The notes below the pieces were generated by a model. It saw nothing but the letters and a program-made list of their open reading frames with translations, did not search any database and was not told the origin of the DNA. A program made the position numbers and the translations under genes. DNA of 64,000 bases. Origin: a virus. Positions 1-49,945 of this stretch are shown piece after piece. How positions within the stretch are numbered: the stretch's first letter is position 1; each line of letters starts with the position of its first letter. The stretch lies in IMG/VR virus record IMGVR_UViG_3300025018_000100. The stretch is one strand, 5' to 3'.

Positions 1-77
1 ATAATAAAAAACCTAATATTAAATACAATAATTTAAATTTCACTGCGATCCTCTTGATGTTGATATATAATTTTTTC

Positions 78-111
78 AAAAAAAAAAGCGGGCTTTCCGA
101 GAAAAGCCCGC
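78..111 (-). terminator. Intrinsic terminator after Ro60 gene
   Basis: GCGGGCTTT/AAAGCCCGC inverted repeat (88-111), followed on the minus strand by a 10-nt U tract. Confidence 0.9.
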
Positions 112-124
112 CAAGTTAAACTAT

Positions 125-1657
125 TTAAAACGTATAGTTATTAACGGTTCTAATAATTTCATCAGACTTATCTGAAGTAGTCAGAAGATCAAAGACCTTG
201 TCTGACCAACCAGATAATTGAGTCCATCCACTAATTTCAGTAAATGGGTTAGCAGCGTAACCTTGTAGATCAAATAATACTTTGTTAGTACTATTATTTG
301 CTACTCCATAGTTCTCAGGCTCTAACTCGCTACGTCCATTCCAGCTTTTAAATCTATTGAATTGCATATCAGTAAATAACATAATAGTATTACCCGTTAG
401 TTTTGCATTTTTTGCGGCCTGCCAAGCAGAGTTAACATTAGTGCCATAACCAATTCTATTAACTTCATCAAGAATAGAAGTAGCAACACTTAGAGCAGTA
501 CTTCTATGACTACGTGGAGTAATTACTTTACCAATATCAGCGAAAGCTACAATCATGCTATCTCGTCCTCTACGAACACTAGCACTCCATACTGCTGATG
601 CATATACTGCTGCTAACTCTACCATACGAATAGTACTCTTATTAGAGATAGGGCTTGCCATGCTACCACTAACATCAACAACTAAGATAGTATCTCCTAA
701 GTCGGGAATATTATCAATAGAAATATCAAAAGCAGTTTCAAGAGCAGCTAATAGTTTACCATTAACCTTACTCGTATCATAACTAGAATATGATGTATAT
801 CCAATACTTCCACCTAATTCCTTATACGCAGTATAAAAACGATAAGGTAACTGTTTGCTTTTACGTACCTCTTCTTCATTAGTCAAACGACTAATTACTT
901 TAGTAAGATCAACATCGTGATTTACGAAGTTACGTAAGTTGCGAAGTAAAGCCATAAACCCAGTTTTTGGGTTGTTTGCTACTTCCTGCCAGTTTTCAGT
1001 GTTAGAACCTTCAGTAGAAATTTTAGTTTCCCAAGTATCTGGGGTTTTTAATTCGTCATTAATGATACGATTAAAAATAATATTTTGTTTGTGGTTTTGT
1101 GGTTTAGCATGAGTAATACGTAACACATCACGTAATTTTACTTCAGTTCCGCGATTATATTTAGCAAATTGATATTCATCAAACTTATAGAATGAATCTG
1201 CTACACCTTTCTTAATAGCTTGAGGTACTTTATTCTTGCTACCAAACTCACTAAGAGCGTAGGCATAAGTATCAGTAATTTCATCTGCACGGCTAATAGT
1301 CGCAGTTATAGCTTTACGTAGTAAAGGTAGTTTTACATTATGATTACGTAATTGCTTAGCAAGTATAACTTGTAAAGCAATACTAACAGTTCTCATATTC
1401 ATAACTTTACGAGCATAAACCCCTAATTTAGCTACGAAATCTGCTTTTCCTGTACGTACTAATTCACTGACAAGTTCATTCATACGTGTAATACGATCAT
1501 CACCTGATTCATAAAATTTTGGTTCTCCAAACATACAAGTTACAACTAGACGTACTAGCTCTAAATCTGCTGATTGTCGATATGCAGGTGCACCATTATA
1601 TGTAGTAGTTTCAGTTACTCTACCGCCGAAGCGCTGTGCTTTATTATTTAATTTCAT
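125..1657 (-). CDS. Ro60-like TROVE-domain RNA-binding protein with C-terminal vWA domain
   Basis: TROVE motifs (FYE, FDEYQFAKY, LRDVLRITHAKP, TPDTWET, MALLRNLRN, QLPYRF) and vWA MIDAS DVSGSM...TD. Confidence 0.92.
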   Translation of the reverse strand: MKLNNKAQRFGGRVTETTTYNGAPAYRQSADLELVRLVVTCMFGEPKFYESGDDRITRMNELVSELVRTGKADFVAKLGVYARKVMNMRTVSIALQVILAKQLRNHNVKLPLLRKAITATISRADEITDTYAYALSEFGSKNKVPQAIKKGVADSFYKFDEYQFAKYNRGTEVKLRDVLRITHAKPQNHKQNIIFNRIINDELKTPDTWETKISTEGSNTENWQEVANNPKTGFMALLRNLRNFVNHDVDLTKVISRLTNEEEVRKSKQLPYRFYTAYKELGGSIGYTSYSSYDTSKVNGKLLAALETAFDISIDNIPDLGDTILVVDVSGSMASPISNKSTIRMVELAAVYASAVWSASVRRGRDSMIVAFADIGKVITPRSHRSTALSVATSILDEVNRIGYGTNVNSAWQAAKNAKLTGNTIMLFTDMQFNRFKSWNGRSELEPENYGVANNSTNKVLFDLQGYAANPFTEISGWTQLSGWSDKVFDLLTTSDKSDEIIRTVNNYTF

Positions 1658-1705
1658 TTTTCTTCTCCTAAAGAATTTGCTGTTAGGTGAAAGAACTTTT
1701 TTTTC

Positions 1706-1783
1706 GGAGAGAAAAGGCGTTAAGGCTTTTTTATTGGTCGTGAAAGATAAATCTCTCGAAGAAATCCTTAACTACGCAGCTCC
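1706..1783 (-). ncRNA. Structured leader RNA upstream of Ro60, candidate Y-RNA-like element
   Basis: Minus strand GGAG..GCG[TAG]TTAAGG...CCTTAACGC..CTCC: 5' and 3' ends form a bulged stem around an A/U-rich loop; lies between a promoter and the Ro60 RBS. Confidence 0.55.
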
Positions 1784-1796
1784 TTCAATGTTTTTT

Positions 1797-1825
1797 ATTA
1801 TATCAATATTTTGAGAAATCACCAA
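1797..1825 (-). promoter_or_regulatory. Sigma70-type promoter for leader RNA and Ro60
   Basis: TTGGTG-N17-TATAAT with extended -10 TG. Confidence 0.7.
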
Positions 1826-1858
1826 GAAAAAATTAATTTTATTTTCTAGGTGGTTACT

Positions 1859-1896
1859 AAAAATGGGGGATATTTAAAGCCTTCCCCCAGAGGCTT
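1859..1896 (-). terminator. 3' element of hfa-like operon: terminator hairpin or H-type pseudoknot
   Basis: AAGCCT-C-TGGGGGA-AGGCTT-TAAATA-TCCCCCA-TTTTT. Confidence 0.65.
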
Positions 1897-1901
1897 AATC
1901 T

Positions 1902-2600
1902 TTAGTTACTGCGATTAACCTGAGATGTACTAGCACTAGCACCTACGCCCGAAACAGACTGAGATGCCTTACTAACACCACCGTTAAGCTGAACTCCTCC
2001 AGCAACTACAGTTGCAGTATTTACTGCAAAGTTACCAAGAGATAAGTTAGTCTGGTTATCACCGCCTACGTTCTTCTGACTAACAAAAGACCCTGCTCCA
2101 ACAGCAGCAACACTTTGTGTTGCCTTATTTGTTAGAAGATTAACCTGTCCACCAACAGCTACGATAGTTCCGGTATTAAGAGCGCCGTTTAATGCTGTGA
2201 CATTAAGTTGATCTTCGCCGGCATCACGGTTAGTCTGGCTCATAGAAGTCTGAGCACCTACGGCTAGAACGCTTTGAGTCGCCTTATTTACAAGTAAGTT
2301 ACCTTGAACTCCAGCAGCAACAATTAAAGCCTCGTTATAAGAACCATTAAGTCCTCCTAAGTTAGCTTGATTATCATCACCATCTACATTCTTCTGAGTA
2401 GTAGAAGAGACAGCGCCTACAGCTTCAACAGACTGAGAAGCTTTACCAACAAATAGATTCCCTTGTACACCAGGAACTAAGATAGTTCCAGTATTTACAG
2501 CAAAGTTACCTGCCTCAAGATTGACCTGATTATCGTCAGCCTGAACAGCAGTACTCATCAGAGCTAAAGCTGCAACTGTAGATAAAATTAAATTCTTCAT
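1902..2600 (-). CDS. Secreted N/Q/G-rich repeat protein (4 x 52-53 aa), HfaD/curlin-like amyloid candidate
   Basis: 21-aa signal peptide (..AVQA) plus four repeats NQxNLxxxNxxxNTxTI..GxQxNL..KA[ST]QSVxAVGA..QxN; directly downstream of the CsgG/HfaB gene. Confidence 0.75.
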   Translation of the reverse strand: MKNLILSTVAALALMSTAVQADDNQVNLEAGNFAVNTGTILVPGVQGNLFVGKASQSVEAVGAVSSTTQKNVDGDDNQANLGGLNGSYNEALIVAAGVQGNLLVNKATQSVLAVGAQTSMSQTNRDAGEDQLNVTALNGALNTGTIVAVGGQVNLLTNKATQSVAAVGAGSFVSQKNVGGDNQTNLSLGNFAVNTATVVAGGVQLNGGVSKASQSVSGVGASASTSQVNRSN

Positions 2601-2647
2601 ATATTATATACCTTTCTTTAAGTTAAGTTATAGTATCTTAGATACTA

Positions 2648-3427
2648 TTATTTTACGTTTTCGACGTTATCAAGTATAGCATTACACTCACTCATATCAA
2701 CATCGTCGTATAATTGGGAAGCCAGATTAAAACTTGCTTGTTGTAATACCGCTCTTGTAGCAATACCAACAGCTTCTCTCTGTTGTTCCCCAATGTCTAA
2801 TGTTACTAATGTATCACCGAAAAATCTACCAATACCCATACCATAATCTAGTGCTACAATTTGTTTATTAAGACTAGTCTGTGCTACAATCTCAGATGTA
2901 TTAGTATCTGTTAAGGTTAAGTCCATACCAACTATCATTCTATACTGTCTGGCCTTAGCTCCAACACCTGCCACGGTAACATCAAAACCACCACCAGGTA
3001 AGAAATCTAAAGTATTAATACTACCGGTAACATGATAATCAGAAGTTTTAATCTTTAAAACTCTTCCTAAGCTGTTTTCTAATAACATAACACTGAAATC
3101 ACGTCGGTTAACTACATTATCTGGTTGAATTTCAAACCAAGCATTTTGTGCAATATCTCCTGCCGCTTGAGTAACATAAAATCCGTTACCACCGTCGCCA
3201 TTTGCAAATTTACCTGTAGCATCTTTAATATCACCGACACCTACCCATGCTAAATCATGACCTTTTAACTTATCATAGGCACAAGATAAAACATCATCAT
3301 ACGGAGTATGAATATTTGTTACTGGAGGACCTTCCATAACATCCATATTTTTTGAAGGATTAGTACCTGCTGTACAAGCACTTAGAGCTAAAAGGCATCC
3401 GCCTGTTAATAATAATTTTCTTAACAT
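2648..3427 (-). CDS. CsgG/HfaB-family outer-membrane secretion lipoprotein
   Basis: Lipobox LSAC; GPPVT..TPY...LSC, VGVGDIKDATGK, VTQAA, VTGSINTLDF, VGMDLTLTDTNTSEIV, EAVGIATR as in CsgG/HfaB. Confidence 0.85.
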   Translation of the reverse strand: MLRKLLLTGGCLLALSACTAGTNPSKNMDVMEGPPVTNIHTPYDDVLSCAYDKLKGHDLAWVGVGDIKDATGKFANGDGGNGFYVTQAAGDIAQNAWFEIQPDNVVNRRDFSVMLLENSLGRVLKIKTSDYHVTGSINTLDFLPGGGFDVTVAGVGAKARQYRMIVGMDLTLTDTNTSEIVAQTSLNKQIVALDYGMGIGRFFGDTLVTLDIGEQQREAVGIATRAVLQQASFNLASQLYDDVDMSECNAILDNVENVK

Positions 3428-3440
3428 TATATAGCCTTTC

Positions 3441-3932
3441 TTATTGTGAATACTGATTAGTGATATTAGTTACTTCACTAGAAGCAGTAGTATCACCGTT
3501 AGTATTTGCATTATTGTTATCAGTTGCGTTATTTTGGTCGTTAGTAACTTCCACAGAATTACCTTTACCATCTACGTGAATAGAGGTATTATTAGTATTA
3601 CTCTGATCGTTTACTACTTGACTACCAATCGCAGTTGAATTATTTTGTTGGTCAATTTTAGTAGTACATCCACCACTAAATTTATTATCCCCACTATCAC
3701 ACTGAATATTAGTATCTCCAATAATAGTGCTTTGGTCGATATTATTAGTAGTATTATATCCACCATTTTTTTGCCATTCAATTAAGTCAGCTTGACTAAA
3801 AAGAACTGCTTTATCACTAGGACTCATAAATCCCCAGTTTGCATTCCAATCTGTAGAAGGTTGCGCATCACCCGCAATTGCAGGAATAGCAATCACGGAA
3901 GATAACAGAACCCCTAATAAAGTATATTTCAT
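3441..3932 (-). CDS. Secreted HfaA-like N/T-rich protein
   Basis: RBS AGAGG before ATG 3932; signal peptide (..PAIA); C-terminal STAIG..IHVDGKGNSVEV..NTNGDTTASS resembles the HfaA ATAIGN..N.VIV..Q.N.G.(V)TA pattern. Confidence 0.65.
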   Translation of the reverse strand: MKYTLLGVLLSSVIAIPAIAGDAQPSTDWNANWGFMSPSDKAVLFSQADLIEWQKNGGYNTTNNIDQSTIIGDTNIQCDSGDNKFSGGCTTKIDQQNNSTAIGSQVVNDQSNTNNTSIHVDGKGNSVEVTNDQNNATDNNNANTNGDTTASSEVTNITNQYSQ

Positions 3933-3985
3933 ATTTGTTCCTCTTTTCTTATATTTTAAATGAGTATCTCTCAATTAATATAACC

Positions 3986-4014
3986 ATTATATAATATATA
4001 ATAGCATCAATCAA
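3986..4014 (-). promoter_or_regulatory. Promoter of hfa-like operon
   Basis: TTGATT-N17-TATAAT. Confidence 0.7.
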
Positions 4015-4057
4015 CTAAAAAATTAATGCATATAGTTGTATCCTATAATATAATTCA

Positions 4058-4528
4058 CTAAGAATTTATCTTTATAAAATCTCTAAGAATCATAATAGTC
4101 TTACCTAATATATTTTTGCCTTTATATTCGGTATTTACACCCCAATAAATATCATTCCAAGTAGTAAATTCTACTAAAGTAGCATTACTTGTGGCTAATA
4201 GTCGTTCTATTAATTCTTTATTATATACAAATTTATGAAAACAAGTTAAAGCCATTTTATCATCTTTGATTTTATCCCAGTCATCACGTAATATTAATTG
4301 TCTACCACGTTTTTTAGCTATACCAGGTGTTGTGCTTTTTCTTATCCACTCACTACCTTTTTCGTCTACAGCTTTTAATGATTGAAATAAATGTTCTCCA
4401 CTTTTGTATATTTTACTATTATAAGTAATATCGGACTCGTAGAAATTACTTAACCAACCATAATCTCTGCTACTGCTAGAAAAATATATTACTTTATCAA
4501 AAAGATTAGGATTCCAATCGTTTTGCAT
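4058..4528 (-). CDS. NADAR (YbiA-like) family protein
   Basis: WLSNFY, EHLFQSLK, AKKRGR, LRDDW, LLAT...LVE, DIYWG, GKNILG. Confidence 0.9.
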   Translation of the reverse strand: MQNDWNPNLFDKVIYFSSSSRDYGWLSNFYESDITYNSKIYKSGEHLFQSLKAVDEKGSEWIRKSTTPGIAKKRGRQLILRDDWDKIKDDKMALTCFHKFVYNKELIERLLATSNATLVEFTTWNDIYWGVNTEYKGKNILGKTIMILRDFIKINS

Positions 4529-5096
4529 GTTTACATACCTCTAACCAATTTTTAACACGAAATACGTCTAAACCTTCCCATGCAGTATTATAACCTCTAT
4601 CCAATAAGAAAGAGGTAGCACCTTCTTCAGCACCTACTTGCGCCCATTTAACATGATCTTCTACCCAAAAAGCAATATCATATTCATTAACATACTTATT
4701 AAGGAGAGGTCGTTTATCTCCTTTCAACCCAATACAATGAACTTCCTTGAAAAAAGAAAACCCAAAGTATTCAGATATGTTAGCAAGTCTATTTTCGATA
4801 GCTTGGTCACTATCATGCCATTTGGTAATCGCAATAATATCCCAACCAGTTTCTTTTAAATAATTCATAGCAAAGATAGCGTCAGAATGTAACTCACAAG
4901 TAGCCCCAAAAGAAGACTCACTATACTCAGCTACAATAGCATCTGATAACTCAGGAGTCCAACCCATAATTTGATGCATCCGTTCATGCTCTTTATATTC
5001 TGGAGAAATCCACCTTTTATCTTTACAAAATCTCATAAAAGAGTTTCTAAAATCTAGAAAGGTTCCGTCTACATCAGTTAGTAATACTTTTTTCAT
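4506..5096 (-). CDS. HAD-superfamily 5'(3')-nucleotidase-like protein (T4 30.2-like)
   Basis: LTDVDGT motif I, WVEDH motif, RGYN, RVKNW. Confidence 0.75.
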   Translation of the reverse strand: MKKVLLTDVDGTFLDFRNSFMRFCKDKRWISPEYKEHERMHQIMGWTPELSDAIVAEYSESSFGATCELHSDAIFAMNYLKETGWDIIAITKWHDSDQAIENRLANISEYFGFSFFKEVHCIGLKGDKRPLLNKYVNEYDIAFWVEDHVKWAQVGAEEGATSFLLDRGYNTAWEGLDVFRVKNWLEVCKHAKRLES

Positions 5097-5124
5097 TTAT
5101 ATACCTTTAAATAGTTAAGGCAGC

Positions 5125-5310
5125 TTATTCAGCTGCCTTATTTTTATTGAATGTTGGTTGTGTTTTTGAAATATTTACAAACCCACCACGACTAGGGTGA
5201 GCGTAGATAACTTGATAACTATCACAAGTATCTTTTAATAAATTAGCTATATGATTAGCTGCATCATGAATAGTAGTAAAATTACCTTTATCAGTGATTT
5301 TTACTTTCAT
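5125..5310 (-). CDS. Hypothetical protein
   Basis: ATG ORF, co-oriented with neighbours. Confidence 0.55.
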   Translation of the reverse strand: MKVKITDKGNFTTIHDAANHIANLLKDTCDSYQVIYAHPSRGGFVNISKTQPTFNKNKAAE

Positions 5311-5330
5311 ATTTTATCTTTCTATAAAAT

Positions 5331-5418
5331 TGGAGGATAGAGAGGGATTCGAACCCTCGGAACCTTTCGGTTCACTTCCTTAGCAGGGAAGCACGATCAG
5401 CCGCTCTGTCACCTATCC
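5331..5418 (-). tRNA. tRNA-Ser(GCT)
   Basis: Cloverleaf, anticodon arm CTTCC-CT GCT AA-GGAAG, long variable arm, GGTTCGAATCC, encoded CCA. Confidence 0.95.
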
Positions 5419-5807
5419 GTTAATAATTTTTCTACCGTGTGTTAGTGTTATACATTTTCCTGTAAGCACATCGTGTTCAGTCCAAGTTTTTGCCCAAGGA
5501 CCTCTAATAGAAATACACCAACTAGTTTTAGTTGCTATAACTCTATGATTTTTTGATCTAGGAGTAAATTTTGGTTTTAATGATCTAGCGTATAAATAGG
5601 TTGATCCATCGTAATTTTCTTCTAATAATTCACCTTTTAAAAACCAAGTATAAGCATTAAACGCATGAGTATGATAAGTTTCTCTTTTACCTTTATTAAA
5701 TTTAAGTAAAACAATAGAAAAAAGGGATTTAATTTCAAGTAGATAATAACCATCTACTGGAGAGTCTGGCCCACCATCTTTTAATTTTTTAATTTTTTAA
5801 AAAGCAT
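5413..5807 (-). pseudogene. Cupin-like phage protein (KDGG..HTHAFN..RGPW) split by an 8-nt tandem duplication; absent from ORF track
   Basis: RBS AGGAGA, ATG CTT TTT AAA AAA TTA AAA AAT TAA; the -1 frame continues for ~120 codons (KDGGPDSPVDGYYLLEIKSLFSIVLLKF...YHTHAFNAYTW...RGPW). Confidence 0.8.
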
Positions 5808-5824
5808 TTTTTCTCCTAGTAAAT

Positions 5825-5901
5825 TGGTGCCCACGGAAGGATTCGAACCCTCAACCTACGGAGTAGAAATCCGTTGCTCTGTCCAATTGAGCTACGTGGG
5901 C
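5825..5901 (-). tRNA. tRNA-Arg(TCT)
   Basis: ACGGA-TT TCT AC-TCCGT, canonical T arm, CCA. Confidence 0.95.
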
Positions 5902-5969
5902 GTTAACTTTTATCTTAAAAGTATTTTAACATCTTTAATAAAATATAATTATTTATTTTTCACACAAAT

Positions 5970-6045
5970 TGGCAGAGGTACTAGGATTTGAACCCAGACT
6001 TGCGGTTTTGGAGACCGTCGTGCTATCCGTTAACACTATACCCCT
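5970..6045 (-). tRNA. tRNA-Trp(CCA)
   Basis: ACGGT-CT CCA AA-ACCGC (A27.C43 mismatch), G73, CCA. Confidence 0.93.
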
Positions 6046-6157
6046 ATAAATTTTATTTACCGACTACTGCAAAACTGCTTTACAAAAAGCATTAACTACG
6101 CCTTTAGTCATATTAGTATGATCAACAATTAATTTCACTTTATTTACTTTTTTAAAT

Positions 6158-6233
6158 TGGTGCTGTTACAAGGAGTCGAACCATGATTTCCGGAGTACAA
6201 AACCGGTGTGTTATCCATTAACACTATAACAGC
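6158..6233 (-). tRNA. tRNA-Thr(TGT)
   Basis: GCTGTTA/TAACAGC acceptor; CCGGT-TT TGT AC-TCCGG; CCA. Confidence 0.88.
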
Positions 6234-6317
6234 TTAGTTTCTTTAATAAAGTTTTCCTTATTTATAGTTAATTATAACAAATAATATAGTAGCCCACAAT
6301 ATAAAAGTTAAAAAATT

Positions 6318-6394
6318 TGGAGGTTCTACCGAGATTCGAACTCGGAACTTCGCATTACGAAAGCGGTATGTTAGCCAGTTATCACTACAGAACC
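6318..6394 (-). tRNA. tRNA with CGT anticodon (nominal Thr), non-canonical body
   Basis: GGTTCTG/TAGAACC acceptor, U73, CCGCT-TT CGT AA-TGCGA with two mismatches, perfect T arm, CCA. Confidence 0.8.
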
Positions 6395-6398
6395 ATTT

Positions 6399-6484
6399 TG
6401 GAGGAAGGTGGAGTAATCGAAACCCTATCATTTGCACGATACCACGGAGTTCAAATCCGCTTTGACACCTTGTCGGCACCTTCC
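6399..6484 (-). tRNA. 8/4-type tRNA-Ser(TGA)
   Basis: 8-bp acceptor GGAAGGTG/CACCTTCC, 4-bp T stem GGGT/ACTC, tiny D arm GACA-AGG-TGTC, long variable arm, GCGGA-TT TGA AC-TCCGT. Confidence 0.85.
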
Positions 6485-6485
6485 A

Positions 6486-6824
6486 TTATTTTTTAGGACC
6501 ATTTTTATTAGGTTGTTTTACACTACCCCCTTTTCCGGCCCATAAATCTTTTCTAGCCCAATAATTAGCACTAAATTTATCGTCTTTTCCTTTTATACCT
6601 GCACTTCTTGCTAGATAACTTTTTCTAGCTTTATCACTATAGTTATGCCCATAACCCGTAGCGCCGTAATGTACTAATTTAATTTCGTCGCCTTTTTTAG
6701 CTAAAACCATTTTTTTCTTGCCTGGTCTATCGCTTTTTTTAGGTTTATTAAAACCATCAAAAGTTTTACCAGAATACTCAATTTTACCGTTAGATGTTCT
6801 TTTTACGTCTTTTGCTTTCGCCAT
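6486..6824 (-). CDS. Conserved basic phage protein, probable nucleic-acid binding
   Basis: Lys-rich; KLVHYG...RKSYLAR...SANYWARK pattern typical of a widespread viral family. Confidence 0.75.
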   Translation of the reverse strand: MAKAKDVKRTSNGKIEYSGKTFDGFNKPKKSDRPGKKKMVLAKKGDEIKLVHYGATGYGHNYSDKARKSYLARSAGIKGKDDKFSANYWARKDLWAGKGGSVKQPNKNGPKK

Positions 6825-6839
6825 TTCCTTTCTCTCAAT

Positions 6840-6866
6840 AAAAAAGCGCCTTCAAAGGCGCTTTTA
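6840..6866. terminator. Intrinsic terminator (probably bidirectional)
   Basis: AAAAGCGCCT-TCAA-AGGCGCTTTT. Confidence 0.85.
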
Positions 6867-6895
6867 TGTTTCTAAATTAGAACAAAGCAGTACCT

Positions 6896-6961
6896 TCAAA
6901 TAGTAGAACTATTGTCCCCTACTCTTAACCAACTCGAAATCATAGTTTCTGTGCTATCCAT
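6896..6961 (-). CDS. 21-aa micro-ORF (MDSTETMISSWLRVGDNSSTI) with its own promoter and RBS
   Basis: TTGCTA-N17-TATTAT promoter (6990-7018), AGGAG RBS, terminator downstream. Confidence 0.4.
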   Translation of the reverse strand: MDSTETMISSWLRVGDNSSTI

Positions 6962-7038
6962 AATTTTCTCCTAATTTGAATTATTATGTATAATATCATA
7001 AGTTTAAGTAATTAGCAAATTAAAAATTTAATAATTTA

Positions 7039-7188
7039 CTATTTTTCATATTTATAATTTTTGCTTAATGATCCATCTTTATTGTAAATACCTTGGTCAA
7101 CCAAACATTTATTAGCAATTTCTACAGACATAGTATTTGCTCTAGTAAATGCAATCATAGCTTGTTTAAATGTTTCATTTTTATTCAT
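7039..7188 (-). CDS. Small hypothetical protein (49 aa, GIYNKDGSL motif)
   Basis: ATG overlaps stop of upstream gene; below ORF-track size cutoff. Confidence 0.6.
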   Translation of the reverse strand: MNKNETFKQAMIAFTRANTMSVEIANKCLVDQGIYNKDGSLSKNYKYEK

Positions 7189-7670
7189 TACAAACTCCAA
7201 TAAGTAACGTTGTCTGGACTTCTTTGAGTAATTGCATACACTATATCATAAGGAGCATTACCTAAACCTACTCCAGGCATAGCTGAGTGAAATTTAAAAT
7301 CTTTACTTCTTTCTGCAGCTATATTAAGGTGTTCTACGCTATTACTAATTAAAGAAATTGAGCTATTGTCTTTATAATGTCTTTTAGTTTGTAGTAACCC
7401 AATACCTGTTCTGTTACCATATTTAATATCCCAAGACTCGTTAAATAGGAGAAGAAAGAAATAATTTTCATTCTCGACATTATATTTTCTAATCAATTTA
7501 CCTGCTAAAGTAGGTAAATTAACAAAATAATTAGCTCCCTCCAAAGCTACACCTGCCCCCATAACTAAATTTCCATTTTTCTTTATAACATTATTAGTAG
7601 TTAAGCAAAAAATCTTATTACCGGGCTTTGTTAACTCATTAAACATATTACCTTTACTATAATTAGCCAT
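7188..7670 (-). CDS. Macrodomain-like ADP-ribose-binding/hydrolase protein
   Basis: LTTN..KKNG.LVMGAGVA, TKRHY, MPGVGLG. Confidence 0.75.
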   Translation of the reverse strand: MANYSKGNMFNELTKPGNKIFCLTTNNVIKKNGNLVMGAGVALEGANYFVNLPTLAGKLIRKYNVENENYFFLLLFNESWDIKYGNRTGIGLLQTKRHYKDNSSISLISNSVEHLNIAAERSKDFKFHSAMPGVGLGNAPYDIVYAITQRSPDNVTYWSL

Positions 7671-8352
7671 TTTTATATCCTGTTAATAATAAAATATTTC
7701 TATTAGTATAACTACTATTAAAAGTCCAGTGAGGTGTAGTTTTCCAATTAATTTTACATATATCACCGGCTGACCATGATAAATATTTTTCTTCGTTCTC
7801 TTCGTTTAAATAACCAATACCTTGTCCTGGTACTTGATCTTCTAAGAAAATAAAGTAAGACTCTAGATTTGCTTTTCTAGAAATTTGACGCCTAACAGGA
7901 TCAAAACCGCATGCAGGATCATAATTTTCATATAGTTTAGTGTAGTGATCATAATGAATACCTTTAATATCTCCAGGTTTTTGAGTATGCAAACCTATAA
8001 CATATTCACCTCCCTCAAAACCTAACTGTTTTGCATATGATTGTTCTGAAATTTTATATCTATCAAAACCATAACTAAAATTATTTTTAAAATCAGCCTC
8101 TTCACCTTTAGGAAGATATCCTGGAGTATGGTATTCCCAATTTTTAAATTCAGGTATTTTTAACGATTTTAGATTTTTATCAATTACTACGGAACCTATT
8201 ATATCTAAACCCCTAACAGAAAAAGAGCCGATATCTTTATGATGTTCCCATAAAACTTCACCTAATTCATAATAACTAGGAACTTCATCTAATAATCTTA
8301 GATAATCCCTTAAGGTATTAATAGAATACCATTTATTTATATAATCATACAT
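7663..8352 (-). CDS. 2OG-Fe(II)/AspH-like dioxygenase
   Basis: QKPG...HYD, W.AGD, PHWTFN...R.ILLLTG. Confidence 0.65.
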   Translation of the reverse strand: MYDYINKWYSINTLRDYLRLLDEVPSYYELGEVLWEHHKDIGSFSVRGLDIIGSVVIDKNLKSLKIPEFKNWEYHTPGYLPKGEEADFKNNFSYGFDRYKISEQSYAKQLGFEGGEYVIGLHTQKPGDIKGIHYDHYTKLYENYDPACGFDPVRRQISRKANLESYFIFLEDQVPGQGIGYLNEENEEKYLSWSAGDICKINWKTTPHWTFNSSYTNRNILLLTGYKNG

Positions 8353-8860
8353 TACTAATTTCCTTTAATTTTTTCTTAGCATAGTTAGGATCACTAAGTT
8401 TTTTACTAGAGTATTCACTATTATCTTTTGGTTTAAAAATAATGTTATCCTTAACAGCTTTTGGCATAAATTCTGGTTTTGTAATTCCGTGCATTTCACA
8501 CTCAGCCATAACAAAGTATAACTGATCACAATTATGAAATCTATAGAAAAAATCTACATCCCATGTCTCAGAACCAAAAATAGCAGAGTATCTAACTTTA
8601 TAAAGTTTATTTTCTGTTTCTGCCCACAACATATCATAATCTTCTTCATCGATCATAAACTCTAACTCTACAACTGAACCATTATTAAGTGTATGTTTAT
8701 AAGTAAAAATAAGACCGTGACCCTCAATAGAGCGTAATCTACCACCATCTTTAAGGTATCCTTGATAGATTTCTTTTCTAGTAAATGATTTATCTTTACT
8801 AAATAAATTTGGATTAGTATTTAAACTTAAAACGTATTTTTTCTCAAATTCAATAGGCAT
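8345..8860 (-). CDS. CYTH (triphosphate tunnel) domain protein
   Basis: IEFEKKY ExExK, IYQGYL, RLR, K.RY, AECEM. Confidence 0.85.
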   Translation of the reverse strand: MPIEFEKKYVLSLNTNPNLFSKDKSFTRKEIYQGYLKDGGRLRSIEGHGLIFTYKHTLNNGSVVELEFMIDEEDYDMLWAETENKLYKVRYSAIFGSETWDVDFFYRFHNCDQLYFVMAECEMHGITKPEFMPKAVKDNIIFKPKDNSEYSSKKLSDPNYAKKKLKEISNV

Positions 8861-8867
8861 ATATAGT

Positions 8868-8889
8868 ACAACCCCTTTTCAGGGGTTGT
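8868..8889. terminator. Hairpin, probable terminator
   Basis: ACAACCCCT-TTTC-AGGGGTTGT. Confidence 0.7.
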
Positions 8890-8893
8890 TCTC

Positions 8894-9496
8894 TTATCTA
8901 GGTGTTATTAAAGGATGTTTACGAAGAATTACCTCTCCAACCCAATCGTACAAAAATTCCATCCATGAAGGATCATCAATAAAGATTGGAAATTTTCTAC
9001 GATTTGCCGCAAGTTGCCAGTAAGTAGGAGCAAATGGTTTAATCTTAGGAGACCACTCACCTACAGGCATACTTCCACCTTTAGCATGGTTAAGAGATGA
9101 ATGAGATGCTACTACATTATCCCAGGTAGTTTTTCCACCAGCATGTTGGGGAATAACATGATCAATAGTAATATAATCAGGACTTGAGTCTTTCAAAGAC
9201 AATGGTCTACCTGAATAAGCACATTTACCATGATCTCTATAGTAAAGAAATTCTCTACTAAACCCAATCTCTTCTTTTCTCGTTAACATCTGTGTTCTTG
9301 CAACAACTGAGGGAAATTTCATCTGTAAATCTGGATTTTGTGTTTTGACGTATCTATCATACTCAGCTACAACATGACAAGTTCCATTATACACACGGGT
9401 GATCGCATCCTCAACTGGAATAGTCTGAGGATTTGGAACCAAATTAATTGGTTGATAATCAGCGTTTAATACAAGTGTTCTTAGTCCTAAAGTCAT
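8894..9496 (-). CDS. HNH endonuclease
   Basis: TLVLNADYQP, RD.GKCAY, TIDHVIP..GG.TTWDNVV, N..KG. Confidence 0.88.
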   Translation of the reverse strand: MTLGLRTLVLNADYQPINLVPNPQTIPVEDAITRVYNGTCHVVAEYDRYVKTQNPDLQMKFPSVVARTQMLTRKEEIGFSREFLYYRDHGKCAYSGRPLSLKDSSPDYITIDHVIPQHAGGKTTWDNVVASHSSLNHAKGGSMPVGEWSPKIKPFAPTYWQLAANRRKFPIFIDDPSWMEFLYDWVGEVILRKHPLITPR

Positions 9497-9549
9497 AGCT
9501 TATCTCCTAAATCTTTCTAAAAACTATTATATTCTCTTTTAATCATTTT

Positions 9550-9819
9550 TTATTTACCTTCCTTTTCTAAATATTCTACTATAATGTCTCCGTGACAAGC
9601 CAAAGGCTTACAGAAACATCCTAATTTCTTACTTCTTAAAGCAAGAACTTTTTGTTTAAACTCAGCATCTACTTCAATTTTTTCAAGGAAATAGTTTTCA
9701 TATAGTTTAATAGCTTTTTTTCTATCTTTACCTACAGGGAAAGGATTTCCAAAATCACTAGGTCTTCCTATATATACATCAAAATCTTCTTGATTTTGAT
9801 TAACTACTACAGTCCGCAA
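9550..9819 (-). CDS. DUF4326-type protein
   Basis: DVYIGRPS.FGNPF, LGCFCKP.ACHGD. Confidence 0.88.
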   Translation of the reverse strand: MRTVVVNQNQEDFDVYIGRPSDFGNPFPVGKDRKKAIKLYENYFLEKIEVDAEFKQKVLALRSKKLGCFCKPLACHGDIIVEYLEKEGK

Positions 9820-9995
9820 AAAAATACTACCTCCCCGTTTTCATCAGTATTAAATTGTATAGGTACTCCAATATACTGATTTGCATGTATATCTTCATCT
9901 AAATATAATGCATACATATCTTTAAGATTTTCGTCTACAAAATATAAAGAGTTACCAATAATACCAACAATAGTACCAAAATTAATTTGTTCCAT
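9807..9995 (-). CDS. Hypothetical protein
   Basis: ATG ORF overlapping next gene start. Confidence 0.6.
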   Translation of the reverse strand: MEQINFGTIVGIIGNSLYFVDENLKDMYALYLDEDIHANQYIGVPIQFNTDENGEVVFFCGL

Positions 9996-10014
9996 TAGTA
10001 ATCCTATAAAAATT

Positions 10015-10089
10015 TGGTAGGGATAAACGGGTTCGAACCGTTGACTTCTTTCATGTCACGAAAGTACTCTTCCACTGAGTTATATCCCT
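10015..10089 (-). tRNA. tRNA-Val(GAC)
   Basis: CTTTC-GT GAC AT-GAAAG, T arm, ACCA end; promoter TTGTCA-N18-TACTAT upstream. Confidence 0.93.
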
Positions 10090-10151
10090 ATTTTTGTTAA
10101 TTTTAAGTTCTTTATTCTATATAGTAGCATTAATTTTTAGTAGTTGACAAG

Positions 10152-11567
10152 TTAAAAATTAACGAAATCTTTAATATGGTCAAACCAATTTAAAGAAATA
10201 TCATGTCTTGTATTAGGAATTGGTTTTCCTCTCTCATTCAATGAGGTGTTAATTAACACCCTACAGTTCTCATATTCTTTAAGTTTTGTTAAGATTTTGT
10301 AAGCTATATCTTGGCTAGAATCTACCATTTGTAATCTACCTGTAGGAAATATATTATTACTATACATACTATCAAAAGTAAATAACATTTCTTTACTAAC
10401 CTTATTTTTTGTTATATAGTAATCAGACGCGTACTCGGAGAGTACCATAGGAGCGTAAGGTCTCCAATTGTCTTTAATTCTATTTTTTATATAATTTAAT
10501 TTATTAATATTATCTTTAGTAGGTATACAAAGTAAACTTCTATTACCTAAAGCTCTTGGACCCCATTCAGCCTTTCCACCTATAACAAAAGCTATATTAC
10601 CTTTTTTAATATAATTAACCCACTTATCAATATCATCATCAGTATAATCAGAATATACACCATGAAAACTATTTTCCCAAGTACCTTTGAGATTTTTATT
10701 CCAAGCTGCTCCCATAGCACATCCTGCATCACCTGCCGCAGGATTGATAAAAACATCATCGAAGACACTAAATAGTTTAGAATTAGCTACACAATTATAA
10801 GCTAAACCTCCGCTATAGTATAAAATCGATGTTTTTGTTTCGTTTTTCAACCAAGTAGCTAGAGAAACGATTATTTTTTCTATAGTATCCTGAATGCTAG
10901 CGCACAAATCAAAATCTACTTTATTAATTTTTCCTGAACCTACTATACTATTAATTAAGTATTCTTTTGGTATTACTTTATAATTACCAGAATTATAATT
11001 AACGATATGTTTTTTGAATAAAGGAGACCAAATAGGTTTACCATAATGAGAAGCACTCATTATGATATTTTCATCATATAAAGGTCTTAACCCGCTAAAA
11101 CTAGTAACAGCACTATATAATAGTCCTAAACTATTTGGATAATTAAATCTTTTTAACCAAGTAATATTTGAACCATCCCAATACCCTAAGCTAGTAGCAT
11201 AGTTTCCGCCTTTAGTATCTGCTACCATTACGGCTCCAGGTATACCTTTATTCATACCTATACTACTATAAGCGTGAGCATCATGATGATTGATAAAATC
11301 AATATTACTAATATTTATAAATTTTTTAAGTAGTTTTTTAGTTTTATACCTATCAATAAAATTATCTTCTTTATTAAAAAAAGTAACATTATCAATAGCA
11401 TATTTATTTCTTACATATTTCAATGTTAGTTTAGGAAAACTAGCATCGTGCTTTATTCCACTAAATCTTTCTTCTTGAGAAGCAAATAAAACTTCTCCTG
11501 TATCTTCCTTTACTAGAGTTATAGCACTGTCATGGTGACCATAACTAATTCCTAAATTATTAGCCAT
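10152..11567 (-). CDS. Carbamoyltransferase (NodU/CmcH family)
   Basis: HDSA, EERF..IKH, HHDAHA, SLGLLY, GG.AYNCVAN, GDAG, EWGPRALGNRS, RPYAP, NTSLN.RGKP. Confidence 0.93.
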   Translation of the reverse strand: MANNLGISYGHHDSAITLVKEDTGEVLFASQEERFSGIKHDASFPKLTLKYVRNKYAIDNVTFFNKEDNFIDRYKTKKLLKKFINISNIDFINHHDAHAYSSIGMNKGIPGAVMVADTKGGNYATSLGYWDGSNITWLKRFNYPNSLGLLYSAVTSFSGLRPLYDENIIMSASHYGKPIWSPLFKKHIVNYNSGNYKVIPKEYLINSIVGSGKINKVDFDLCASIQDTIEKIIVSLATWLKNETKTSILYYSGGLAYNCVANSKLFSVFDDVFINPAAGDAGCAMGAAWNKNLKGTWENSFHGVYSDYTDDDIDKWVNYIKKGNIAFVIGGKAEWGPRALGNRSLLCIPTKDNINKLNYIKNRIKDNWRPYAPMVLSEYASDYYITKNKVSKEMLFTFDSMYSNNIFPTGRLQMVDSSQDIAYKILTKLKEYENCRVLINTSLNERGKPIPNTRHDISLNWFDHIKDFVNF

Positions 11568-11574
11568 AATAAAA

Positions 11575-11596
11575 GGCGGTAGATTTCTCTACCGCC
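11575..11596 (-). terminator. Terminator after Hsp20
   Basis: GGCGGTAGA/TCTACCGCC hairpin followed by TTTT on minus strand. Confidence 0.8.
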
Positions 11597-11609
11597 CCCC
11601 TATTAGTTA

Positions 11610-12044
11610 CTATACACTTGGTTGTGTAGATTGTTTCGTTGAGGGTTCTTTAATATCAATTTTTTGTACATCTTTTTGATATTTAATAAAATGAATTTTA
11701 AGAATACCATTTTCAAGAACAACATCTCCTATAGTATACATACTAGGAATTATAAAGTTACTTTTGAAAGATTTACTACTAATACCTTTGTAGACATATT
11801 CAAGATTACTATCATTTTTAGTAGCATTAATACTTAAAATACCGTCTTTAGCGGTAACTTCAATATCATCAAGGAAATAACCGGCCATGGCTATTTCTAC
11901 GGTTAAGTTTCCTTTATCATCCTTAATAACATTATAAGGTAAATGCATTAACTTATTGGTATGATTAATTCCGGATACCCAACTATCTAAAAGATAATCA
12001 ATCATGTCGAAAGTCTTTATATGTAAATTATTTGATTTATTCAT
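11610..12044 (-). CDS. Small heat-shock protein (Hsp20, IbpA-like)
   Basis: PYNVI, EIAMAG, YKGIS.KSF, LENGILKI. Confidence 0.92.
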   Translation of the reverse strand: MNKSNNLHIKTFDMIDYLLDSWVSGINHTNKLMHLPYNVIKDDKGNLTVEIAMAGYFLDDIEVTAKDGILSINATKNDSNLEYVYKGISSKSFKSNFIIPSMYTIGDVVLENGILKIHFIKYQKDVQKIDIKEPSTKQSTQPSV

Positions 12045-19672: not shown

Positions 19673-20030
19673 ATTTCATCCAATCATTAGGACTAATAAT
19701 AGTTTCATCTATTAATTCTAGTCTACGAGGATTTCCTTTCATTACTAGTACTTTTTCTTTCTTTTCTTTTACGTATTCATATACACCCCAGAAAAGACCA
19801 ACATCACAGTAACGCATGCTCTCGATATTAGCTACAGTATCATTCATTTGTTTAGCATGTTTATTCCAAAACTTAGCTTGGACTTCACTAGTAATTCTAA
19901 CTTGTGCTGATTCCATCCATTCGAATGCTAAATGAGGATACCATCTAACTACATTAGATGCTGTTGATATTTGTTCTTGAATGCTATTAAATTGGAATTT
20001 AATAGTTTTAAAGTATCTCTTTTGTTTCAT
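19665..20030 (-). CDS. Hypothetical protein
   Basis: ATG ORF with RBS. Confidence 0.7.
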   Translation of the reverse strand: MKQKRYFKTIKFQFNSIQEQISTASNVVRWYPHLAFEWMESAQVRITSEVQAKFWNKHAKQMNDTVANIESMRYCDVGLFWGVYEYVKEKKEKVLVMKGNPRRLELIDETIISPNDWMKYV

Positions 20031-20220
20031 TTTGTCTATTTTTTACCTCTATGCTTTTATTGTATACGCTTAATATCAAATATGCTGCGTGAAATTCTAA
20101 TCCTTGATCTTTTAAATTTTGTACGTCATTCATTAAATTTTTTGCTTCTGGATAGCCCTGTTTTGCTAAAGCTTCAAATGTTCTACGCGCTTCTGGGTAC
20201 TTAGTAAATTCAACTGTCAT
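20008..20220 (-). CDS. Hypothetical protein, first gene of leftward unit
   Basis: AAGGAG RBS before ATG 20220. Confidence 0.7.
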   Translation of the reverse strand: MTVEFTKYPEARRTFEALAKQGYPEAKNLMNDVQNLKDQGLEFHAAYLILSVYNKSIEVKNRQNETKEIL

Positions 20221-20250
20221 TATAACTCCTTTATCTTGAGACACAATTAT

Positions 20251-20348
20251 ATTATAGCTCAAAAATGACTATCGAGCAATAAAAAAGTGTAGCAAGCGAC
20301 AGTTGCAGTCAAAAAATTCTTGCTTATTTTTTATACATATGGTATATT
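20251..20348. promoter_or_regulatory. Divergent promoter pair at the strand switch
   Basis: Minus: TTGCTC-N17-TATAAT (20279-20251). Plus: TTGCTT-N17-TATATT (20320-20348). Confidence 0.8.
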
Positions 20349-20355
20349 AATAATT

Positions 20356-20568
20356 ATGTATGTAACCGAATCACAACTAAGAGCCGAAATTAGAGAATTA
20401 CACGCCACCATTAAAGCTTTAGCAAAAGATCATGGTGCTGAATTTTTACAACTCTATACAGAACTTGAAAGCTATAAAGAGCAATTTGAAACACAACAGG
20501 ATGTTATGAACCAAATTATAAAATCTATAAATATTATAGAGAAAAAATTAGATATGGAGCAAGAATAA
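20356..20568 (+). CDS. Coiled-coil hypothetical protein, probably leaderless
   Basis: ATG 7 nt after the -10 box; no SD. Confidence 0.7.
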   Translation: MYVTESQLRAEIRELHATIKALAKDHGAEFLQLYTELESYKEQFETQQDVMNQIIKSINIIEKKLDMEQE

Positions 20569-20569
20569 A

Positions 20570-20830
20570 ATGACCGAACGTAGAGTTGTTGGTATATATA
20601 GAAATGATTATTTGAAGAATTATGTGTCTTTAGAGCTTAAAAAAATTGAAGATAAAGGTATTAATACAGAATTTGTAGAAGCTGATGATACCTTTTACGA
20701 CGAACGTTTCGGAATTACACGATTTCCGGTGTTTTTATTTATGAAAGATGACTCCTTAGTTTGTAAGATAAACGGCAAATATATGGACGATACTTTGATT
20801 AAGCAATTAGAGTCCTTAAAGTGGATTTAA
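20570..20830 (+). CDS. Thioredoxin-fold protein lacking CxxC
   Basis: FVEAD, RFGITRFPVFLF.KD..V.K.NG (cis-Pro loop region). Confidence 0.6.
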   Translation: MTERRVVGIYRNDYLKNYVSLELKKIEDKGINTEFVEADDTFYDERFGITRFPVFLFMKDDSLVCKINGKYMDDTLIKQLESLKWI

Positions 20831-20919
20831 TTGCTTTGCACCAGTATTAAATCTAAAAATACCATCCAAAAAGTGGGTCCGGATTTGAGGATTTACTATC
20901 TAAAATGAAGTCTAGTTAA

Positions 20920-49435: not shown

Positions 49436-49945
49436 ATGAGTAAATTTAAAGGAATAACTTTTCCTTTTTTTGGATTACTAAAGAAACCTATTACATTATC
49501 GTATGACAGTAATAGAATAACAATAAAGAAGATAACTAATGGGGCCAATTTTATATTAGACGATAGAAGTATATCTGGCTCCAGTTATCTTGATAGAATA
49601 TATAAATTAGAAGATAAATACGATAAACAAAGAGTTATATTTGATATAACTGCCCGTAAAATGGAAGAACTTATAAATAGTGGATGTGTTTGGGGAATAG
49701 ATAACCAAGCAAAAGTTTTTGACTTATCTAAAAAAGAAAAATTTAAATATAAAGTTACAGATATTTCTCGTATAAAAGATAATTTATTTTGGGTAAATGG
49801 GATTAGCTACCCTTTTCAACTACCTGATCATTTAGTTGGTGTTAATTTAAAAGACTTAAAAGCTAAACTTGTGTATATTGACGGAGTTTGGTATTTACAT
49901 AGATTTGATCTATTAATAAAATATCAAAATACTATAAAACTATGA
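49436..49945 (+). CDS. Hypothetical protein between Pol and helicase
   Basis: ORF in T5-like position. Confidence 0.75.
   Translation: MSKFKGITFPFFGLLKKPITLSYDSNRITIKKITNGANFILDDRSISGSSYLDRIYKLEDKYDKQRVIFDITARKMEELINSGCVWGIDNQAKVFDLSKKEKFKYKVTDISRIKDNLFWVNGISYPFQLPDHLVGVNLKDLKAKLVYIDGVWYLHRFDLLIKYQNTIKL

Follow-up and report, generated by a model that had tools for sequence, protein, structure and literature searches.

Which secretion system, if any, is encoded by the three-gene unit at positions 1902–4014 of a phage stretch from the IMG/VR virus record IMGVR_UViG_3300025018_000100, and what could it do for the phage? The stretch analysed here (the window, 64,000 nucleotides) belongs to a parent contig of 200.7 kb. 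On its minus strand it carries gene A (3441–3932, 163 aa), whose product is secreted and has a Sec signal peptide; gene B (2648–3427, 259 aa), coding for a CsgG/HfaB-family lipoprotein that is presumed to be a secretion channel; and gene D (1902–2600, 232 aa), coding for a secreted four-repeat protein that is presumed to be the cargo or fibre subunit. An earlier reading of the letters, here called the original prediction, had proposed an hfaA-hfaB-hfaD-like operon that exports amyloid-like fibres or an anchor onto the host surface. Based on the analysis below, we consider it rather likely that the unit is a putative phage-borne, self-contained secretion cassette of the type-VIII-like (curli/holdfast-anchor) kind, and infected cells probably carry a fibre or coat of phage origin on their surface. 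The description 'hfaABD-like' is right for the architecture and wrong for family membership.

The layout of the unit agrees with that proposal. The gaps between A and B and between B and D are 13 and 47 nt, respectively, and each contains a ribosome-binding site. Longer intergenic spacers are found at the cassette borders: 125 nt upstream of A, which holds a promoter candidate, and 244 nt downstream of D, which opens with a hairpin. The promoter candidate (3986–4014, minus strand, TTGATT-17-TATAAT) is the joint-best sigma-70 match of the region (10/12). The window contains 13 copies of a stricter pattern (TTGA-N18-20-TATAAT), where 3.8 would be expected, and because of this enrichment we regard the candidate as plausible, as a functional prediction only. 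A second promoter-like site, a consensus match only, is located inside the 3' end of B (2673–2700, minus strand, TTGATA-16-TATACT with TG) and could drive D on its own. Downstream of D, one or more hairpins followed by UUUUU (1858–1896, minus strand) make a terminator candidate, the folding energy of which is unremarkable (minimum free energy -16.1 kcal/mol, z -1.5). Thus the open reading frames (ORFs), signals and spacing are as claimed for a three-gene unit with its own promoter candidate and 3' hairpin, and all three products have the predicted export signals (Sec signal peptides with A-x-A-type ends in A and D, and the lipobox LSAC18 in B).

Concerning B, the Pfam CsgG family (PF03783) is matched with 42.6 bits (gathering cut-off 20.8, E 5.5e-11), and a profile of 24 B homologues aligns to the solved E. 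coli CsgG (3x2r/4q79/6l7a) over chain residues 8–245 (E 4e-9). The lipobox cysteine, Cys18, is kept in at least 90% of these homologues, among which the cysteine pair C49/C248 is also conserved. In the sequence alignment, both membrane-hairpin segments of CsgG are matched in B without large gaps; in the constriction loop, N81 of B aligns with CsgG Asn55, and Tyr51 and Phe56 are without clear counterparts. The relation to HfaB is more distant. On the HfaB equivalog model (NF037935) B scores 93.1 bits in two stretches, below the cut-off of 300, and true HfaB proteins score 368–410 bits. The E. coli-type CsgG equivalog gives a still lower score (11.9 bits), that is, B fits the HfaB model better than the curli one.

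The same separation is seen in a phylogeny for which seven true HfaB proteins served as the root. B belongs to a clade of 48 rows, and a branch of 4.78 separates this clade from true HfaB and the proteins of phages CcrColossus and Kabachok. The members come from Nitrospinota, a metagenome-assembled genome (MAG) of Campylobacterales, Sneathiella, the Acinetobacter lwoffii group, Brucella plasmids, Paracoccaceae, Comamonadaceae, an OM43-type Methylophilales genome and three IMG/VR contigs. The nearest cellular homologues are those of Nitrospinota (51–56% identical). A search of IMG/VR with the single B protein gave no match and an alignment query was needed; tblastn of B against 50,697 phage records matched only Caulobacter and Brevundimonas phages, and no pelagiphages. 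Judged from these comparisons, B truly belongs to the CsgG superfamily, in a separate and unstudied subfamily, and is not HfaB; it is presumed to be an oligomeric outer-membrane channel. The original assignment of the middle gene to CsgG/HfaB is therefore upheld for the CsgG family and not for HfaB. A prediction of the A–B complex scored 0.00 against a mark of 0.32 with a disordered partner, and weighs neither way.

Looking at A, the ORF list gives a TTG start (3974); the likely start is the ATG at 3932, located behind AAGAGGAA, and the gene caller agrees with it. The product contains the Sec signal peptide MKYTLLGVLLSSVIAIPAIA with cleavage before GD, a conserved N-terminal motif (DW-x-x-NWGF...QA-x-LIE...GGY) predicted as a helix, a C-x12-C pair and a disordered tail rich in N, Q, T and D, which includes the motif IGSQ...G-x-N-x-V. 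In the AlphaFold model the helix at 38–55 is the sole confident part and the remainder is disordered. An iterated hidden Markov model (HMM) from A retrieves 96 ORFs from 93 loci, of which almost every one immediately precedes a B-type gene; among these ORFs are CcrColossus gp241 and its Kabachok equivalent (E 1e-17 to 1e-22). The common traits of the family are a signal peptide, the motif DW-x-x-(S/N)W-x-F...QA-x-LIE...GGY, often a Cys pair, and an N/Q/T/G-rich tail with IG-x-Q...G-x-N-x-V.

The membership tests of A were negative. There is no match to the HfaA equivalog (NF037934) at E <= 1, and true HfaA scores 79–128 bits. In hhalign the A family and true HfaA reach a probability of 14% over a 32-column motif only (AIGN...G-N-x-V), which is non-significant, and jackhmmer, run in either direction, leaves the two families apart, even with intermediate HfaB-like loci from 15 alphaproteobacterial genomes added. 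No Pfam or NCBIfam match was found, including CsgF, in a Pfam set without an HfaA model, and neither A nor D matches any Pfam family at E <= 10, the curlin repeat (PF07012) included. The A and D families are also not linked to each other by hhalign (probability 0.3%). In the ESM Atlas the cluster nearest to A is auto-named 'HfaA family' (score 0.92) and the true-HfaA cluster scores 0.84, which we treat as a lead only. The best description of A is that of a partner conserved alongside this subfamily of channels and analogous to HfaA or CsgF in its position.

The signal peptide of D ends at VQA|DD, and the mature protein consists of four repeats of 52–53 residues, 45–58% identical to one another, with a high content of V, G, N, A, S and Q. 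Three invariant Q-x-N motifs recur in each repeat at spacings of 21, 23 and 9 residues, a curlin-like spacing. Tandem Repeats Finder detects no DNA-level tandem repeat in the gene, and the repeats, being invisible at the DNA level, are therefore old. The AlphaFold model is all beta (predicted local distance difference test, pLDDT, 79.7; predicted template modelling score, pTM, 0.72). Structural comparisons are weak throughout. The top Foldseek match in the PDB is FapC (9u4u, E 3.3e-3, probability 0.25). Among the 48,161 chains searched with VIA, a tool which treats Z < 8 as commonplace for repeat folds, the best is the E. coli CsgA fibril (Z 6.5, root-mean-square deviation (rmsd) 7.5 A, 93 aligned), and P. 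korlensis CsgA (Z 5.0) and FapC (Z 4.9, rmsd 3.5 A, 107 aligned, 17% identity) are also matched; all matches of D fall below that level. A fold search of BFVD gave weak matches, which were uncharacterised proteins labelled 'uncultured Caudovirales' and a few entries named 'Curlin associated' (E 0.04–0.13). The predicted all-beta model of D is consistent with a beta-solenoid and supports this fold class well; an amyloid nature of D has no such support, with all structural scores in the commonplace range.

By sequence, D is separate from all the families that could be compared. The HfaD equivalog (NF037936) gives no match at E <= 1, and the hhalign probability with HfaD (0.1%) is smaller than in the reversed control; against the downstream proteins of Nitrospinota, the third genes of Kabachok and CcrColossus, HfaD and three other groups of downstream proteins it is at most 1.4%, about the level of reversed controls. 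With filters off, the best sub-threshold matches of the D HMM are A-family proteins (E 0.3–1, non-significant). In the ESM Atlas the nearest cluster is auto-named 'Adhesin' (0.89), and a cluster with HfaD in 70% of its members scores 0.85, again a lead only. The original prediction had called for profile comparisons with CsgG, HfaA and HfaD; the one of B with CsgG came out clearly, and those of A and D with HfaA and HfaD did not. What it had said of amyloid-like cargo survives in part: the last gene encodes a repeat protein predicted as a beta-solenoid, the best, albeit weak, structural matches of which are CsgA and FapC, and A and D are without a match to the HfaA and HfaD models.

An antifreeze or ice-binding role for D, to which Rhagium and springtail proteins point (Z 4.5–5.1), was set aside, as these are generic flat-solenoid matches and the gene context is that of a secretion channel. 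Another reading is that D is a monomeric beta-solenoid adhesin or coat, exported via B and held by A, which binds a ligand or masks a receptor and makes no fibres. The model of D is a closed, well-packed monomeric solenoid; many of its second-rank structural matches (Z 4–5) are generic beta-helix adhesins, two-partner-secretion domains and antifreeze proteins, which are monomeric; the nearest language-model cluster carries the name 'Adhesin'; and HfaD itself has been described as adhesin- or S-layer-like (PMC6707917). The top structural matches, however, are the amyloids CsgA and FapC, a Q/N ladder at 21–23-residue spacing is a curlin hallmark, and a D-like paralogue in two related cassettes (see below) fits a nucleator/subunit pair. 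We consider a monomeric D unlikely, though it deserves more credit than the other alternatives weighed here. No FapF-type barrel is present in the cassette.

The distribution of D bears on whether the cassette belongs to phages. A word-indexed search of 5.8 billion clusters returned four family members, and an exhaustive HMMER search of 1.84 billion representative proteins returned 14 at E <= 1e-3. Nine members outside the window were viewed in context: six are on contigs with phage-like gene content, and three (L106, L107, L124) are on contigs of at most 3 kb, too short to judge. The full order A–B–D is present in a 76-kb IMG/VR UViG and again on a 228-kb contig (L005/L007), in L105/L125 beside RlaP, radical SAM, HNH and ATP-ligase genes, on the P0107 contig, which has phage-like gene content, and in L108 beside a clamp-loader-like AAA gene. 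A 3-kb contig (L104) has B–D–TROVE as in the window, with 65–69% identity to it (TROVE 69%). In the contexts that could be judged, D is thus seen so far only on phage-like DNA, mostly as A–B–D. Behind D, L105 and L125 carry another D-like gene (247 aa; 4930–5673 and 4001–4744, respectively), which is divergent and matches the D profile with E 1e-6, and the resulting order A–B–D–D' recalls the csgA/csgB pair.

The B proteins of the phage cassettes form one clade (SH-aLRT 99), sister to the Nitrospinota/Campylobacterales clade, and this phage clade spans at least five divergent phage backbones. Pairwise identities among four cassettes are 31–39% for A, 55–71% for B and 32–54% for D; therefore, the cassette has long been maintained in phages, moving between backbones. 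These data also bear on the possibility that the cassette is a passenger, that is, recently captured bacterial DNA with no role in infection. The composition would fit, as the G+C content of the cassette is 37% (D: 42.5%) and exceeds the 30% of the window, and so would the 51–56% identity of the Nitrospinota homologues of B. Against this stand three intact ORFs, each with a ribosome-binding site, the single phage clade of B across these backbones, the restriction of D to phage-like contexts and identities which indicate long upkeep within phages, and we regard a mere passenger as very improbable.

A wider survey, in line with the synteny search between phage and bacterial genomes that had been suggested, shows A–B linkage in about 90 loci and A–B–D kept in several phage contigs. 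Of about 100 loci, about 90 have an A-family gene immediately ahead of B; these are found in Nitrospinota, Sneathiella, Acinetobacter, Brucella plasmids, Paracoccaceae, IMG/VR contigs and the phages CcrColossus and Kabachok, and in nearly all of them a protein with a signal peptide is encoded directly downstream of B. The bacterial cassettes (A–B–X; Nitrospinota, Sneathiella, the Acinetobacter lwoffii group, Brucella plasmids, Paracoccaceae and others) share with the window the same B subfamily (40–56% identity), the A gene immediately upstream and a repeat-rich signal-peptide protein, X, immediately downstream. Unlike D, the X proteins belong to other families, without significant profile similarity to it; those of Nitrospinota have 47-aa repeats with the motif S-T-x-A-V-G-A, which resembles the Q-S-V-x-A-V-G-A of D. 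Our literature search found no study of these bacterial cassettes.

Cultured phages have the same three-gene order followed by a terminator: the Caulobacter phages CcrColossus (gp241–243) and CcrPW and the Brevundimonas jumbo phages (Kabachok and others). Their upstream gene is of the A family. They differ from the window in B, which is near true HfaB (207–235 bits) and 27–30% identical to the window protein, and in their third genes, which give weak HfaD matches and are not of the D family. CcrColossus gp242 is annotated as 'CsgG-like' and the CcrPW homologue as 'hfaB', the others being hypothetical, and no paper that discusses these cassettes was found. Other CsgG/HfaB-type loci, in a Nitrospinaceae MAG (L003, 5961–7184) and several alphaproteobacterial genomes (L111–L116), have very different secreted proteins downstream, which either abound in D-x-D-V-D repeats or begin with F-D-x-V-x-W-x-W-D; an A-type gene is missing from some of these loci. 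The CsgG/HfaB superfamily seems to pair with many unrelated cargo types.

Concerning the phage itself, the best phage matches of PolA, a family-A DNA polymerase, are in T5-like Salmonella and Escherichia phages, with 42–43% identity across about 90% of the protein, and the window also encodes an NAD-ligase, a DnaB-like helicase and a tRNA cluster. On these replication genes and the tRNA cluster, the phage would be a distant relative of T5 (Demerecviridae), and the T5-like label is provisional. The cassette is located in the first 20 kb of the window, a minus-strand phage block with six tRNA genes, on the strand opposite to the replication block. Its neighbours are tRNAs and NADAR, Ro60 and HNH genes, and no virion genes are among them. 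This placement bears on whether D, A or both could belong to the virion, for instance as fibre or decoration proteins. Tail fibres often contain beta-helical repeat proteins, and a few of the weak BFVD matches are tail or structural proteins. Yet A and D both have cleavable Sec signal peptides and share an operon with an outer-membrane lipoprotein, in a tRNA/accessory region away from the virion module, and a virion role appears hardly credible to us. The preference for a host-envelope role expressed earlier agrees with this location and with the signal peptides.

A hijack of the host holdfast, which had also been put forward, is unlikely. A Caulobacterales host is itself unlikely because the G+C content of the phage is 30%, and the nearest relatives of B are in Nitrospinota rather than Caulobacterales. 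No hfs (holdfast polysaccharide) genes adjoin the cassette in the window. PADLOC defence models gave zero matches on A, B and D, and the cassette DNA has no match at the nucleotide level in the 50,697 phage records.

From these features the following mechanism can be proposed for the secretion cassette. During infection the host RNA polymerase would transcribe the cassette from its own sigma-70-type promoter, and A, B and D, with the signal peptides seen in their sequences, would cross the inner membrane via Sec. B would be lipidated, sorted to the outer membrane and oligomerise into a CsgG-like channel; the homology is seen, and the oligomer is presumed from it. D, as an eight-rung beta-solenoid with a Q/N ladder, would leave unfolded through B and then fold or polymerise outside to form an amyloid-like fibre or coat on the cell; its linkage, signal peptide and predicted fold suggest this. 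A is mostly disordered apart from its conserved helix near the N-terminus, and carries a short D-like motif in its tail; it may act at the channel exit as adaptor, anchor or nucleator, a role suggested by its conserved gene linkage and by its position, which is that of CsgF/CsgB in curli and of HfaA in the holdfast anchor. The cassette would derive from a single capture from a bacterium near the Nitrospinota/Campylobacterales branch of the B subfamily, after which it would have travelled among phages with a cargo family seen only on phage-like contigs.

The B pore could instead be the purpose in itself, permeabilising the outer membrane for lysis timing or solute uptake, with A and D as regulators or plugs. 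Such a role has been proposed for the CsgGF pair of the Methylophilales phage Melnitz and of pelagimyophages (PMC9004378, PMC7029224), and import has been given as an option (PMC9599517). These earlier proposals predate the recognition of any cargo, whereas in the phage-only clade seen here a signal-peptide repeat protein co-evolves with B. The genes next to the cassette include none for lysis, and the sigma-70-type promoter would fit early or middle rather than late expression. On balance we find a pore for its own sake improbable.

Several points weigh against the secretion-cassette reading. The mechanism is drawn from sequence and models, and the sequencing runs matching the stretch are DNA only and labelled 'aquifer metagenome', with no RNA run listed. 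On its sequence, A is not demonstrably CsgF or HfaA, and sequence comparison links D neither to curlin nor to HfaD nor to the proteins encoded downstream of B in bacterial cassettes. Polymerisation of D is a presumption, its structural matches being weak (Z 6.5 at 7.5 A and Z 4.9 at 3.5 A). Finally, one family of phage-like contigs (L101–L103) has a D homologue (8001–8732) together with an RNA ligase, a CCA-adding enzyme, PTH2, an Fe-superoxide dismutase (SodFe) and a PAS protein, and without A or B within 8 kb; since D stands alone there, it may not strictly need a phage-encoded channel.

The closest published phage systems are those of pelagiphages. Phage CsgG genes have been known since 2020 and complete phage type VIII secretion systems with fibre genes since 2022. 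CsgG, CsgF and CsgA/B (with FecR and adenylate cyclase) are found in SAR11 podo- and myophages and in the Methylophilales phage Melnitz (PMC7029224, PMC9004378, PMC9599517), and the complete type VIII (curli) systems of pelagiphages, with pore, CsgF and CsgA/B, are expressed in metatranscriptomes (PMC9599517). The novelty claimed for a phage system of pore and cargo was thus overstated, given that publication and the cassettes of the same layout in Caulobacter and Brevundimonas jumbo phages. Like the window, the pelagiphage modules combine a CsgG-family channel, a small extracellular partner and repeat 'fibre' proteins, and show bacterial acquisition followed by block transfer between phage lineages. 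They differ in the CsgG branch, in the partner (CsgF, against an A family without a Pfam match) and in the cargo (the curlin repeat, against a new 52-aa repeat family); the window cassette, in addition, is without FecR, kinase and cyclase genes and is on what appears to be a T5-like backbone. New here are this backbone, the phage-only channel clade, the near-universal A–B linkage across bacteria and the negative membership tests for HfaA, HfaB, HfaD, CsgF and curlin.

In Caulobacter crescentus the surface display of HfaA and HfaD depends on HfaB (PMC6707917). The gene order HfaA–HfaB–HfaD (small secreted protein, CsgG-like lipoprotein, larger secreted protein) is shared with the window, and to this extent the hfaABD-like operon was rightly recognised. 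The families are different in models and profiles, with B on a separate long branch below the HfaB cut-off and A and D without an HfaA or HfaD match.

A functional precedent for outer-membrane remodelling is found in phage T5. Its Llp is a small lipoprotein sent to the outer membrane during infection, where it binds FhuA and masks this receptor; the block prevents superinfection and the loss of progeny on debris. As in the proposal made here, a T5-type phage makes an outer-membrane product; unlike the window cassette, Llp is a single protein without homology to it and without a secretion channel or cargo.

The most likely benefit of the cassette to the phage would be remodelling of the infected-cell surface, leading to receptor masking or cell clumping; receptor masking would give superinfection exclusion and keep progeny off debris. 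For pelagiphage curli, superinfection defence, 'sibling capture' and import have been discussed (PMC7029224, PMC9004378, PMC9599517), and the same functional hypotheses apply to the window. Any choice among masking or superinfection exclusion, protection from debris, clumping for 'sibling capture' and import is guessed. A stronger version of our reading is that D is a new functional-amyloid class, known to date from phage-like DNA alone: channel and adaptor were captured once, paired with a Q/N-ladder fibre subunit of their own and passed between unrelated backbones, and a fibre of phage origin envelops infected cells, shutting out rival phages, keeping progeny off debris or clumping neighbouring hosts. 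We put this version forward tentatively, as possible and clearly less likely than a secretion cassette as such.

Phage curli-type secretion is known from ocean pelagiphages. The cassette indicates that phages independently recruited a second, unrelated branch of the CsgG/HfaB superfamily, together with another adaptor family and with a cargo family so far met on phage-like DNA alone. Several phage backbones keep the three genes together, which argues for a general selective value of rebuilding the infected-cell surface. The system is compact, with three genes, and has cultured relatives of the same layout in CcrColossus and the Brevundimonas jumbo phages; it also flags a widespread, unstudied bacterial cassette (A–B–X) in Nitrospinota, Sneathiella, Acinetobacter and Brucella plasmids.

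Other features of the window are the following. Directly downstream of the cassette is a gene for a Ro60/TROVE and vWA protein (125–1657, minus strand; Pfam TROVE 8e-26, phrog_850 'RNA-binding protein'); Rfam finds six tRNAs only in positions 1–12000, with no Y-RNA-like partner near this gene. A NADAR-domain protein (4058–4528, minus strand) is encoded directly upstream of the cassette promoter and a phosphatase-like protein (7188–7670, minus strand, phrog_335) amid the tRNA genes; both may be accessory genes related to ADP-ribose or RNA repair. The accessory region also contains a NodU/CmcH-type carbamoyltransferase (10152–11567, minus strand; Carbam_trans_N/C, phrog_1601 'Nol-like carbamoyltransferase'), which adjoins tRNA-Val. 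At about 20000–20900 the GC skew changes sign and gene orientation turns from minus to plus, marking a divergent transcription point between the accessory and replication blocks. Inteins with a LAGLIDADG homing endonuclease (Pfam Intein_splicing and LAGLIDADG_3) are present in a helicase (49942–52428, plus strand) and in a class II (B12-dependent) ribonucleotide reductase (59337–63653, plus strand).

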